A DNA stretch of 64,000 nt from an uncultured Chloroflexia bacterium (GCA_963765765.1 CAVXYC010000032.1:267882-331881), one strand, 5' to 3'; counted from the stretch's first letter, positions 57,494 to 64,000 are shown. Program-made: numbers and translations. The notes: generated from the sequence alone by a model not told the origin.

Positions 57494-58276
57494 ATGTCTG
57501 AGCTGGAATCCATTGGGCGACCTGAGCTTGGACGCCGCATTCCGCTGCCCGGGACTCACAATCTGCGCGATGTTGGCGGTTACCCAACGGTGGACGGACG
57601 TGAGACTCGCTGGCGAACGCTCTTCCGACCGATAGCCTGCACAAGCTTTCCTTGCTCGCTCAGCAGGAGCTCATCGCATACGGCGTTCGAACGGTGCTCG
57701 ACCTGCGTCGCGACATCGAGGTGGAGCATTGGCCAAACGTCTTCGCCAGCTCATCGAGCCTTCGTTATGCACGTGTCGATCTGGCCCCGATTGGCGGTGT
57801 AACTGAGATCACTGTCGCCTCTCGAGTCGATCTACCGAGCTATCCTAAACTTCCGGCAACGCGAGATTGCCGAGGCGTTCATGATTCTGGCCGAAGAGAA
57901 GGGCTTCCCGGCGGTAATTCACTGCACGGCGGGCAAGGATAGAACCGGGTTACTGGTAGCGTTGCTGCTCAGCCTGGCAGGCGTGGACAACGAAACTATT
58001 GCATTGGACTACGCCTTGAGCTCCGAGTATCTGGGGCAGTCATACTTCAATGAGGCCAGGGAGCGAGCTGTGGTTGCCAACGTGCCATGGGAACGCTATC
58101 GACTCAACCTCGTGTCTCCGCCGGACTACATGCTGCGTACGCTGGACTATGTGGACAGACGCTATGGTGGCGTAGAGCTCTATCTACGCACCATTGGCCT
58201 CAGCGAATCGGACATGTTCAATCTACGATCGGCCATGGTGCGATCGTATAAGCTCTCGCTCGTTCCATCGCGGTAG
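57494..58276 (+). CDS. Protein-tyrosine phosphatase (Y_phosphatase3/PtpB-like), frameshifted
   Basis: GTHNLRDVGGY, VLDLR, HCTAGKDRTG, DYALS. Confidence 0.9.
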
Positions 58277-60713: not shown

Positions 60714-61802
60714 GTGGATATCATGCTGCCGATCCGAACAGCCTTATTACGATGTATGGGGCTTGCTCTCATGATGGGCGTGAGTCAGGTGCCGACTCTC
60801 ACGCTCGCGCAGTCCACAAACCCGTGGGGTGGCGTGCAGCAAGAGGTCGCCCACGGAGTCCGCGGCCAATCGTTTGCCTTCGCGCTTTGGGGAGACATGC
60901 CGTATGCGCGCAATGGCGACGTGCCGAAGATGCCAGCGTTGCTTCAGAGCATCAACCAGTCGGGCTCGCTCTTCTCAGTGTTCATCGGCGACATCAAGGA
61001 CGGCGCATCAGTGTGCACCGATGACCAATTTGAATCGGCCATCGAGCGCTTCAATAGCCTGGTTGCACCGGCGGTCTACGTGCCGGGCGACAACGAGTGG
61101 ACCGACTGCCACCGCACAAACAATGGTGGATACAACGGACTAGAACGGCTGGATCACATACGAACGACGATGTTCAACGTCTCCGAAACGTTGGGTCAGC
61201 GTCGAATGATCGTAGACCACCAGGGCCCGCTCGGTGGGAAGTTCGCCGAAAACGTGCGCTGGGTGTACGGCGATATCGTCTTTGTGGGGCTGAACGTTTC
61301 CGGAAGCAATAACAATAAAGTCAACACGCCGGAGGAATGCACGCTGCTTAGCGCTCGCACGCTGGACGATTGTGACGCGACGAATGCGGAGTACCTGGAG
61401 CGTGACGCGGCGAACGTCGCCTGGCTCGCAGATGCATTCCGTCTGGCGAAAGCGCGAGGGACTGCAGGCGTGATGGTGCTCGTCCAGGCAGACCTTGGCT
61501 TCGATCGACCTGAGACCGCGACGGTTAACGAGCGGATGCTTCCAACAAATGACGGCTACACCAACTTCGTTGATGCGCTCGTCGCCGAGACGAACGACTT
61601 CGCGGGCCAGGTGATGCTCGTGCACGGCGATACGCACTACTTCACGCTGGACAAGCCCCTGATCGACGTGAACAACCCGATTCGTAACTTGACACGGTTG
61701 GAGCTCTTCGGAAGTCCGAGCATCCACTGGGTACGCGTGGAGGTGAATCCGAGCAGCTCCAACGTGTTTCGCATTGACCCCGTGTATGTGCCTGGAAATT
61801 AG
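60714..61802 (+). CDS. Secreted calcineurin-like metallophosphoesterase
   Basis: Signal peptide; GDMPY, IGDIK, PGDNEWTDC, VHGDTH. Confidence 0.85.
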   Translation: MDIMLPIRTALLRCMGLALMMGVSQVPTLTLAQSTNPWGGVQQEVAHGVRGQSFAFALWGDMPYARNGDVPKMPALLQSINQSGSLFSVFIGDIKDGASVCTDDQFESAIERFNSLVAPAVYVPGDNEWTDCHRTNNGGYNGLERLDHIRTTMFNVSETLGQRRMIVDHQGPLGGKFAENVRWVYGDIVFVGLNVSGSNNNKVNTPEECTLLSARTLDDCDATNAEYLERDAANVAWLADAFRLAKARGTAGVMVLVQADLGFDRPETATVNERMLPTNDGYTNFVDALVAETNDFAGQVMLVHGDTHYFTLDKPLIDVNNPIRNLTRLELFGSPSIHWVRVEVNPSSSNVFRIDPVYVPGN

Positions 61803-61820
61803 CGTGGGCACTTCCGACCA

Positions 61821-62224
61821 TTGACTTACGGATTGAATTCGTGGATCGGCCAGGTAAAGCCATGGAACCGATATGCCGTCGCACTGCTACTCATCGGAGC
61901 CGGAACCGTTACCGCATCTGCCACCCAGGCAACAACGGACACTGAGGAACCTGGCGGTGATCGCTGTGGACTACGGTTTCGAGCCTTCTGAACTCACCTC
62001 CCGTCGGAGACTCGACTGTTCGATTGATCAACGCTGGTATCCGTCGGCACAACCTCATAGTGTTGCGGCATGCCGACGGCGTGGAGATCGCGTCAGACAC
62101 GATTCGATCGGGGCAGGAAACCCAGTGGACCGTCACATTCGACCGCCCTGGTCGGTATCAATTCTGGTGCAATGAGTACAGTCACCTCGAGCGAGGGATG
62201 ACTGGCTACATCGTCGTCAACTAG
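61821..62224 (+). CDS. Exported cupredoxin (type-1 copper) protein, frameshifted
   Basis: AVDYGFEPSELT, INAGIRRHNL, PGRYQFWCNEYSHLERGM (His, Cys, His, Met ligands). Confidence 0.8.
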
Positions 62225-62329
62225 CACCACGGTTGAACAATCTTGCTCCGCAATACCTGGGCGCCCCGACGATTCAGCGGCGTTACATCTGAACCGGCAA
62301 GAATTGGCGCTCGTAATTCGTTCGAGGTC

Positions 62330-62808
62330 AACAGCCTCCTCGCGCTTGATGAATCGGCCGTGCTCATCGCGCTTGGGCCGCTGACTGCACAATGTCATCC
62401 ACGCGTTCGCCATTCACCCAGACTGAGTTGGATTCGGATGGGTGGGAACCTTCGAACTCGGATTTCGCCTCTGCGTACAGATCGCTCCAGGAACGCGTCA
62501 CACCCATCAAGAGAGACTGGCTGGCGTTCGCGATTTGAGTCGGACGCGCGCGGCTCGCGATTTGACCGGCTCTGGTACACCGGCGCCAGCAATAGCCGCG
62601 GCGGGTGCCAGCATTGCCATACTTGCGTGCGTCTTCTCTGAGCCCGATGCACTCAGGGTGTCGATCCTTGCCTTCCCAGCCGCGGCGCCTGAGGCGAGCG
62701 CCGGCAGAACGGCTCTCTTCGAGCGACAAGAGCACTAACGCCCAGTCCCAACACGATGCCCCAGGGCCCGAGCGCGCTTTCAACGATATCGTCTATTCCG
62801 AATGCCAT
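62330..62808 (-). CDS. Small membrane protein paralog B (DUF5132-like), frameshifted; end approximate
   Basis: Manual translation: MAFGIDDIVESALGPWGIVLGLGVSALVARR..GVTRSWSDLYAEAKSEF..RDEHGRF; GAGG RBS. Confidence 0.6.
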
Positions 62809-62946
62809 TGTGCTGTCCTCCGTTGGGTGCGCTCGTCTTTTTCAAGCGGGAAAGGAGGAATAGTAGCACGGGACTCTACCATCCCGAGTTTCTTCCGGCT
62901 TCCGGTGGGTGAATCAATAGAGCCCGGCAATGGCCTCGGCGGAAAT

Positions 62947-64000
62947 TTACGAGCGGACGAGGATACCCGCTGCTTTTGGAGGTTCTCCACCGAGTCGAGC
63001 AGCTCCCACGGAAGGTCGAGGTCGGTGCGGCCAACTGCCCGCCCACACTCAGCTCGCGGTAGAACCGGCCACGGCGCTGCGCGGAAGCGTCCAGAGTCGG
63101 AAGTGCTCAGCAATGGCGCCTGGCCGCAGGTCAAACACGTCACGAACGATCTCCGAGAGCCGTTCGTTGGGGATGCGCTCCTGCCAAATGTCCGCGCCCA
63201 GACGGTAGTTGGCCGCGCTTCACCTACCGCGTAGGAGAGCTGAGCTCACACTCGCGAGCCAGGCCGGCAGCCACGATGTTCGTCGCAGCTGCCGCGCGGC
63301 ATAAGCGGCGAGTCTATCGAGCCGGGTGGGGTCCTTACCGCTCAGTGCGCCGTCGCCATGCCGAGCAGCTGCGCCATAGGTGTCCGACGCCTGCTTCCGC
63401 CCCGGTCTGGCCGGCGTTGCGAGCCGGCCCGCCAACAAGCAACGCGCCCTCCGGATTGATGATGAGACGGGTGGCGCCGTCGAAGGCAATCGAGTAGCCG
63501 TGCGAGGGCAGCTTCGCCAGCACATCCTGAACGGCGTCGTGCAAGTCGGCCGCCTTTCCGCTGAACTGCGACTCGATCACCACCGTATCAAGTCGGATCG
63601 GTCGATCGTCGTCGTACTCCACCGTAATCTGTACGCTTCCATCTGGACCGAGGCCCGGCAGTTGCTGGCTGAGCGCGAGCTGGTCAAGCGCGCCGGCGGT
63701 AAGATGCGCCAGGCGTATCGCCAGCGGCATCCGCTCGGGCGTTTCTTCGCATGCGTATCCGAAAACTGTGGTCTGCTCCTGGGCCGGCACGTCGCGGAGT
63801 GCCACATCGGTGTCCGGTGGCACGGCCCAGGGAGGGGTCATCACGCTTGACTGAGCCAGAATTGCACAGTGCTCTGGATCCAGATCGTCGCGGTTATAGC
63901 GCGTTTCGGCCAGCGTTGCCCGAACGACCCCGGTGATGTCGACTTCACCGTGCACTCGCGCATCCGTCACGACGAAGACAAATTGGCCTGCCGCGGCGGT
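62947..64000 (-). CDS. Divergent methionine adenosyltransferase (MetK)-like protein; 5' end outside the window; several frameshifts
   Basis: [86 protein letters not shown]. Confidence 0.88.

Follow-up and report, generated by a model that had tools for sequence, protein, structure and literature searches.

At the end of the 64,000-nucleotide window considered here (the whole stretch analysed, G000:C32:267882-331881, from an uncultured Chloroflexia bacterium) lies a minus-strand coding sequence with the fold of MetK, the S-adenosylmethionine (SAM) synthetase, which on sequence grounds belongs to a selected family of MetK-fold paralogs separate from canonical MetK. Contig C32 is 331,881 bases long, so the window ends where the contig does and the gene runs off it. 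What is present (62947..64000) corresponds to approximately residues 45-395 of the 395-amino acid (aa) ortholog P0151 from the same genus, with residues 45-394 covered in a frame-aware alignment, and the first ~44 codons, containing the GHPDK motif and E42, are lost with the 5' end of the gene beyond the end of C32. The initial annotation, made from the window sequence, had placed the other boundary at 62947, and this is exact, as the stop codon TAA occupies 62947-62949. A single open frame of 221 aa runs from 64000 to 63338 on the minus strand. Its first 200 codons (63401..64000) are unbroken and encode the central domain together with what remains of the N-terminal domain, including the altered positions E55, Q98, D118, K165, F230 and D238, and they contain a match to Pfam S-AdoMet_synt_M (PF02772) at 63443..63787, also on the minus strand (E 8e-25, residues 72-186 of the 221-aa fragment). 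Below 63400 the homology to MetK goes on but switches frames, and the C-terminal domain (62947..63400, minus strand) is read across seven frameshifts; it holds a 20-residue segment, a family-specific insert reading LPR..GRFY that itself spans a frameshift, and a further 10-residue segment.

Residues are numbered after the E. coli K-12 metK sequence, which was fetched and aligned with MAFFT. On the minus strand of the window, VTDAR (63956-63970) stands at GGEIT with E55, VMTPPW (63827-63844) at KQSPDI with Q98, PAQEQT (63770-63787) at GAGDQG with D118, and EGALL (63437-63451) at GRF with F230, while PDGSVQ (63629-63646) keeps D163 and replaces K165 with V, and GGPARNAG (63410-63433) replaces D238 with N. 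Two 10-residue motifs lie beyond the first frameshift and in another frame; one (63373-63402, minus strand) keeps R244 and K245, and the other (63313-63342, minus strand) keeps K265 and D271 and reads TRLD, with K269 replaced by R. At E55, Q98, D238, K269 and I102 the window thus carries D, M, N, R and W, respectively. Every motif quoted in the initial annotation is present, and the two residue sets drawn from them hold as well: E55, Q98, D238 and K269 are all replaced, and D163, R244/K245, K265 and D271 are all retained. The invariant Gln of an AQSS motif was considered as the occupant of position 98 and set aside because both MAFFT and HMMER (against PDB chain 7r3b) pair Q98 with Met; a shifted loop remains conceivable.

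Seven single-base frameshifts within the ~450 bases that form the last third of the gene, next to neighbouring genes that are broken too, might be taken for the marks of a pseudogene decaying in this organism, a reading to which we give next to no credence. Frame-aware alignment to P0151 places an extra base in a C4 run of the plus strand at 63400-63403 and missing bases near 63290, 63240, 63175, 63077, 63033 and 62974. Comparison of window positions 61800-64000 with Logan contigs from four soil-metagenome runs (X1-X4), each belonging to a different study, showed one inserted base at six of these seven sites in contigs that are otherwise near-identical: an additional A behind 63289 (site 63289..63290; X1 and X3, with 0 other differences over 149 bases) and another behind 63240 (63240..63241; X1 and X3), an extra T behind 63175 (63175..63176; X3 and X4), an extra C behind 63078 (63078..63079; X3 and X4), an extra T behind 63035 (63035..63036; X4), and an extra C behind 62972 (62972..62973; X4). 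The seventh (63400..63403) was without coverage and is placed by ortholog alignment only. Two 151-base contigs (X1 record 4 and X3 record 9) differ from the window solely by two such insertions each. One piece of evidence runs counter at 63035, where a short X1 piece covering 63031-63070 (40 bases, with 5 other letters) is without the insertion. The coding sequence is equally well preserved on either side of the first frameshift, both in identity to P0151 (157/199 before, 118/145 after) and in the Nei-Gojobori ratio of nonsynonymous to synonymous substitution rates (dN/dS), which is 0.098 over the 199 codons before it and 0.084 over the 144 codons after. Because six sites are restored in near-identical contigs and dN/dS is equal before and after, the seven frameshifts are assembly or consensus errors and not decay, much as the initial annotation had suspected when it pointed to base-calling indels; pseudogenization is rejected because six of the seven breaks are not real and selection is not relaxed in the broken part. 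The breaks moreover span three adjacent genes, as would be expected of a poorly polished stretch: both neighbouring genes are split between frames, the stretch as a whole measures ~1.6 kb, and bases are also missing downstream of the MetK-like gene at 62939 and at 62576, where an X2 contig has an extra A behind 62576. In a search for source runs, four soil runs matched with small shares only (0.05-0.08), and none of the runs recovered was an RNA run.

The gene is, on comparative grounds, not the SAM synthetase of the cell. This had been proposed in the initial annotation together with a check for a separate metK, and an intact canonical copy is indeed present in the same genome at G000:C6:8603-9760 (406 aa), carrying every canonical motif and scoring 567.5 bits on TIGR01034, for which the curated cut-off is 309.4 bits. 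The window protein is 30 per cent identical (84/276) to this canonical MetK, and its pieces score 100.8 and 53.7 bits on the same model; P0151, which carries all three methionine adenosyltransferase (MAT) domains (PF00438, PF02772, PF02773), reaches 301.7 bits, just below the cut-off. Canonical metK likewise co-occurs with the paralog in Nostoc and Desulfobaccales genomes, and is found as a second match in the Chloroflexota genomes G001, G008, G010, G016 and G024.

Among 41 related genomes, close orthologs with open frames and 51-79 per cent identity over the 221-aa fragment occur in those same five genomes and in the unpublished G006, and all other matches are canonical MetKs at 45 per cent identity or less. 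Counting G000, the paralog is present in 7 of the 66 genomes of this Chloroflexota class. The best 120 matches to P0151 in a collection of 5.8 billion proteins comprise 94 rows that are at least 57 per cent identical or are fragments, and 26 rows at 47 per cent or below; the closer rows are mostly unnamed or labelled 'methionine adenosyltransferase' or 'S-adenosylmethionine synthetase', and are from Chloroflexota where an organism is given. In a representative library clustered at 50 per cent identity, only 2 of 2447 matches reach E 1e-30. In 10 ortholog pairs dN/dS is 0.10-0.29, with dS near saturation, which indicates purifying selection. The initial annotation had suggested asking whether the substitutions define a conserved clade, and they do recur across 85 full-length members and are not noise.

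The pattern of conservation within this clade is sharply divided across the active site. H14, D16, K17, D163, R244, K245, K265 and D271 are kept in 85/85 members and E42 in 84/85. The replacements include E55 to D (82/85), Q98 to M (73/85), S99 to T (50/85), I102 to W (71/85), D118 to E (79/85), R229 to P (72/85) and K269 to R (84/85); K165 has become S (49), D (15), N (8) or E (7) in 79 of the 85, position 230 is L in 54, F in 12 and W in 10, and D238 is read as N (41), D (29) or S (10) in 80. K165, R244, K245, K265, D16 and D271 have triphosphate roles in the E. coli enzyme. Passages of two structural papers assign to His14 the part of the acid that cleaves C5'-O5', to Asp163, Arg229, Phe230 and Ser99 the binding of adenosine, to Gln98, Asp238, Glu55 and Lys269 the binding of the methionine amino and carboxyl groups, and to Ile102 a contact with the methionine side chain (PMC1282579, PMC3853416). 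Judged by homology to these positions, the clade has a rewritten acceptor half of the site and still carries the catalytic His, the ribose ligand, the metal ligands and the majority of the phosphate ligands. The AlphaFold2 model of P0151 (predicted local distance difference test, pLDDT, 88.2; predicted template modelling score, pTM, 0.89) matches MetK structures with a template modelling (TM) score of 0.88 at 38-41 per cent identity, the gating loop and the 240-270 loop being its least confident parts, and a search of the ESM Atlas returned only MetK clusters. The family thus shares with bacterial MetK (EC 2.5.1.6; E. coli 1RG9/1P7L, and 7LL3) the three-domain fold, GHPDK with its catalytic His in the orthologs, D16/D271, E42, D163, R244/K245, K265 and the DTYGG and SGKDP motifs. 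It differs in the replaced methionine ligands E55, Q98, I102, D238 and K269, in an extra LPxxxxGxFY insert and, within the Chloroflexota clade, in the loss of K165, F230 and R229 and a GAGDQG signature that reads PAxEQT.

The next-best relatives are also non-canonical and come from a Desulfobaccales metagenome-assembled genome (MAG), Nostoc minutum, Dendronalium and many metagenome proteins. These share with the Chloroflexota clade both K269 to R and the LPxxxxGxFY insert, which falls between E. coli positions 347 and 350. The Cyanobacteriota (Nostoc, Dendronalium) and Thermodesulfobacteriota paralogs (loci L018-L020, L036-L045 and L066-L079) are only 40-45 per cent identical to the Chloroflexota clade and differ from it in keeping K165 and often F230, and in having R or H at 55, where Chloroflexota have D, and H at 238, where Chloroflexota have N or D; at 98 the wider paralogs have L or H and at 118 N or Q. 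In an IQ-TREE phylogeny of 52 rows they nevertheless stand on the same side of a 100/100 branch that splits 31 paralogs from 20 canonical MetKs plus P0248, the last having been reassigned to the canonical group after the first tree had been seen. The Chloroflexota clade is supported 100/100, and the window fragment is sister to P0151 with a value of 100 in the Shimodaira-Hasegawa approximate likelihood ratio test (SH-aLRT). P0248, a 425-aa metagenome protein, clusters with canonical MetKs of cyanobacteria and its active-site signature is fully canonical, yet it bears an LPxxxxGxFY-like insert typical of the paralogs; it may be an intermediate form or a recombinant, or the resemblance may be a coincidence of alignment. 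Genome searches detected the paralog in 10 of the 151 cyanobacterial genomes sampled and in 14 of 151 from Thermodesulfobacteriota, a related-locus search on genome contigs having confirmed only 4 loci.

It might be argued that such a protein has remained a methionine adenosyltransferase and serves as a divergent second isozyme of SAM synthetase. It has all three MAT domains in full, public records label members as 'methionine adenosyltransferase', and the Nostoc (399.8 bits) and Desulfobaccales (366.6 bits) members, unlike P0151, exceed the TIGR01034 cut-off. We nonetheless consider this most improbable, given that a canonical metK coexists in every genome checked, that K165 is lost in the Chloroflexota clade, that the 100/100 branch lies between paralogs and canonical MetK, and that every methionine ligand named in the relevant passages of PMC1282579 and PMC3853416 is replaced. 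Two published cases bear on second metK genes: the portion of PMC517821 concerned with the two divergent metK genes of Methylococcus capsulatus merely lists them as redundancy, and the 'metK2' in the corresponding part of PMC8092242 is an ordinary SAM synthetase from Halorhodospira.

The strongest functional clue is a pairing with a cation pump, which was invisible to the initial annotation because it lies beyond the contig end. Directly upstream of the paralog and on the same strand, a P-type ATPase of ~1010-1110 aa is found in 28/28 evaluable loci: 5/5 in Chloroflexota (G001, G008, G010, G016 and G024, with the unpublished G006 in agreement and uncounted), 11/11 in Cyanobacteriota, and 12/14 in Thermodesulfobacteriota, where the other two loci begin at a contig end (12/12 evaluable). 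As a control, none of 20 canonical cyanobacterial metK loci has the pump upstream. The stop codon of the pump overlaps the start of the MetK-like gene as ATGA in 8 of 13 loci analysed, including 4/4 from Chloroflexota. Orthologs of the Nostoc pump are present in 12 of 151 cyanobacterial genomes, and 10 of these are exactly the carriers of the paralog. At the genetic level, the family is firmly bound to a single kind of cation pump. The G000 assembly lacks the pump, its contig ending within the MetK-like gene, and the pairing is expected there by extension from the same-genus relative, in which the pump lies directly upstream of the ortholog with a 4-base overlap. A search for longer forms (20 matches) returned two rows, P0276 and P0294, in which ATPase and MetK-like domains stand in one sequence. 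In P0276 they meet at a short shared motif and the C-terminal membrane part of the pump is missing, and P0294 ends in out-of-frame sequence; both were treated as assembly or indel artefacts and, as each is a single sequence, neither is counted as a Rosetta-stone fusion. They do show the adjacency of pump and MetK-like gene on two more contigs.

The pump has the domains E1-E2_ATPase, Cation_ATPase_N/C and HAD. It scores best on the PMR1-type and SERCA-type Ca-ATPase models, below the cut-offs of both, human SPCA1 and Listeria LMCA1 are its nearest relatives of solved structure, and it keeps PEGL in M4 and the Asn/Asp of M6. At its N-terminus it carries HMA_2 (PF19991), found in 4/4 pumps scanned with Pfam, including those of L018 and L019, and the alignment of this domain has no conserved Cys and a conserved G-R-x-R. 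HMA_2 is the CoBaHMA domain, reportedly defined by Gaschignard et al. in 2024. Passages on this domain describe it as lacking a CxxC motif and having a conserved basic patch, and as first described in calcyanin, a marker of intracellular amorphous CaCO3 formation (PMC8890360, bioRxiv 10.1101/2024.07.07.602159); the part of a 2026 preprint that treats it considers it possibly regulatory or lipid-binding. As in W-type calcyanin and other CoBaHMA proteins, the partner pump starts with this domain, without CxxC and with conserved basic residues; within the pair, the domain sits on the pump and not on the MetK-like protein. The passages of the CoBaHMA literature examined contain no link to a MAT-fold protein.

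The number and surroundings of the domain vary. The pump of the same-genus relative G001 (L017, 746-1400) has two tandem CoBaHMA-like repeats at its N-terminus, and the G016, Nostoc, Dendronalium and Desulfobaccales pumps have one. In the Desulfobaccales MAG (L018, 1-9833), three stand-alone CoBaHMA (HMA_2) genes and a DUF5132 gene lie around the pump and MetK-like pair, and an MntP-like gene for putative manganese efflux is directly downstream of the pair; according to part of the preprint on the subject, DUF5132 and CoBaHMA genes adjoin ccyA in Microcystis (bioRxiv 10.1101/2024.07.07.602159). In a cyanobacterial genome (L080, G069:C6:1-7000), a CoBaHMA-bearing ortholog of the pump that is 64-65 per cent identical to the Nostoc pump has no MetK-like gene downstream, nor is there one elsewhere in that genome. 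G168 contains a pump relative without the N-terminal CoBaHMA domain and has no paralog.

Of the readings considered, the most likely is that the protein is a triphosphate- or nucleotide-binding partner of the pump built on the MetK fold, rather than a SAM synthase, and we hold it with moderate confidence. The interpretation in the initial annotation is partly supported overall; as possible roles it had suggested a paralog using a different nucleophile or nucleotide, a tripolyphosphatase or a regulatory pseudo-enzyme. The family has kept the catalytic His, both Mg/K ligands, D163 as the ribose ligand, and the Arg and Lys residues that bind triphosphate. Having replaced the methionine ligands E55, Q98, I102, D238 and K269, it would probably be unable to bind methionine. 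The Chloroflexota clade has also replaced K165 and the adenine contacts F230 and R229, and the family has gained the LPxxxxGxFY insert. In relatives the paralog is probably cotranscribed with an SPCA/LMCA1-like P2-type cation ATPase bearing the N-terminal CoBaHMA (HMA_2) domain, and often may be coupled to it in translation through the ATGA overlap. It may bind Mg-triphosphate or a nucleoside triphosphate (NTP) at the conserved half of the old active site, and could work with the pump either as a subunit, in an accessory or regulatory capacity, or as an enzyme with a substrate or product linked to the cation of the pump, probably Ca2+ or Mn2+. Soluble or small partners of P-type ATPases include the copper chaperones that dock on HMA domains, KdpC, FXYD and phospholamban. 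These provide a working analogy for a separate polypeptide encoded with a pump that could dock on an N-terminal domain of the HMA superfamily, although none of them has a MAT fold or a triphosphate site.

Several observations weigh against a role as binding partner. The strictly conserved catalytic His and metal and phosphate ligands fit an active enzyme at least equally well, and gene adjacency alone does not show physical contact. The CoBaHMA pump of G069, which has no MetK-like gene beside it, shows that the pump can exist alone. In G000 the PF19991 profile finds 0 matches in the 33 contigs of a genome that is 91.8 per cent complete, having found its target in 4/4 positive-control genomes, and a tblastn search of G000 with the same-genus pump gave no match at 45 per cent identity or more.

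An active enzyme could take the form of a transferase for adenosyl or nucleosidyl groups in which something other than methionine acts as the nucleophile; it would release triphosphate in the manner of MetK and make a product tied to the function of the pump. Under purifying selection the family has kept H14, D163 and the full triphosphate/Mg set invariant in 58 paralogs from three phyla, and only the positions that contact methionine are rewritten, differently by subgroup (E55 to D or to R/H, D238 to N/D or to H). The strict conservation of His14 and D163 leans toward retained nucleoside chemistry. The loss of K165 in the Chloroflexota clade (79 of 85 members) leans the other way, as E. coli MetK requires this residue to form SAM; changes also affect F230 and R229, which contact adenine, the W at 102 may fill the former methionine pocket, and nothing conserved next to the pump offers a candidate nucleophile or a biosynthetic neighbour. 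We think a transferase unlikely. A more far-reaching reading, in which a new class of P2-type cation pump would have the paralog as its obligate soluble subunit, docking on CoBaHMA and carrying out adenosyl or triphosphate chemistry on a non-methionine acceptor, seems to us quite unlikely; if true, it would imply a new adenosylated metabolite or the handling of Ca/Mn-triphosphate, and would link ion transport, or the handling of calcium minerals inside the cell, to a reaction of the MAT type. The protein might instead be a stand-alone tripolyphosphatase or NTP triphosphohydrolase that performs only the second half-reaction of MetK, its position behind the pump being one of regulatory convenience. 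The kept residues are those of the triphosphate/Mg site and the methionine site is gone, as such an enzyme would have it. We hold it to be very unlikely, however, as a pairing in 28/28 evaluable loci of three phyla, with ATGA overlap, is hard to explain without a functional link, and as the conservation of H14 and D163, which are presumably dispensable for the hydrolysis of triphosphate alone, suggests that a nucleoside is still bound.

Other genes near the end of the window are affected by the same kind of error. A gene of ~62250-62808 (minus strand), starting MAFGIDDIVES, lies downstream of the MetK-like gene; it is frame-broken and has a 203-aa homolog, assigned to no Pfam family, in the same-genus relative. 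A plastocyanin/azurin-type copper-binding gene at 61821-62224 (plus strand), within the same indel-rich stretch, is split over at least three frames, PF00127 matching its last 66-aa piece with E 3e-5. Further away, a 157-aa open reading frame at 57803-58273 (plus strand) matches only positions 103-239 of the 240-position Y_phosphatase3 profile, and its N-terminal part may have been lost to another indel. On contig C29 a permease homolog is likewise split over two frames, so that sporadic indels occur elsewhere in the assembly.

Neither this MetK paralog family nor its pairing with a P-type ATPase was found described in the full-text literature searched, a collection smaller than all print. Its members are annotated as 'methionine adenosyltransferase' or 'S-adenosylmethionine synthetase' in public records and some pass TIGR01034, and metabolic reconstructions consequently count a SAM synthase that is probably false. 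MAT is a textbook single-function fold, and a sister family under selection that has a catalytic His, a triphosphate site and a rewritten acceptor pocket offers a natural experiment on what else the fold is capable of. To our knowledge no P-type ATPase has a MAT-fold partner, and the pairing is present in about 7-11 per cent of the genomes sampled from three groups (10/151, 14/151 and 7/66). The CoBaHMA domain of the pump connects the pair with a family of domains that has until now been discussed in the context of calcium carbonate biomineralisation, and the pairing yields a hypothesis that may be tested directly in culturable Nostoc-type strains.

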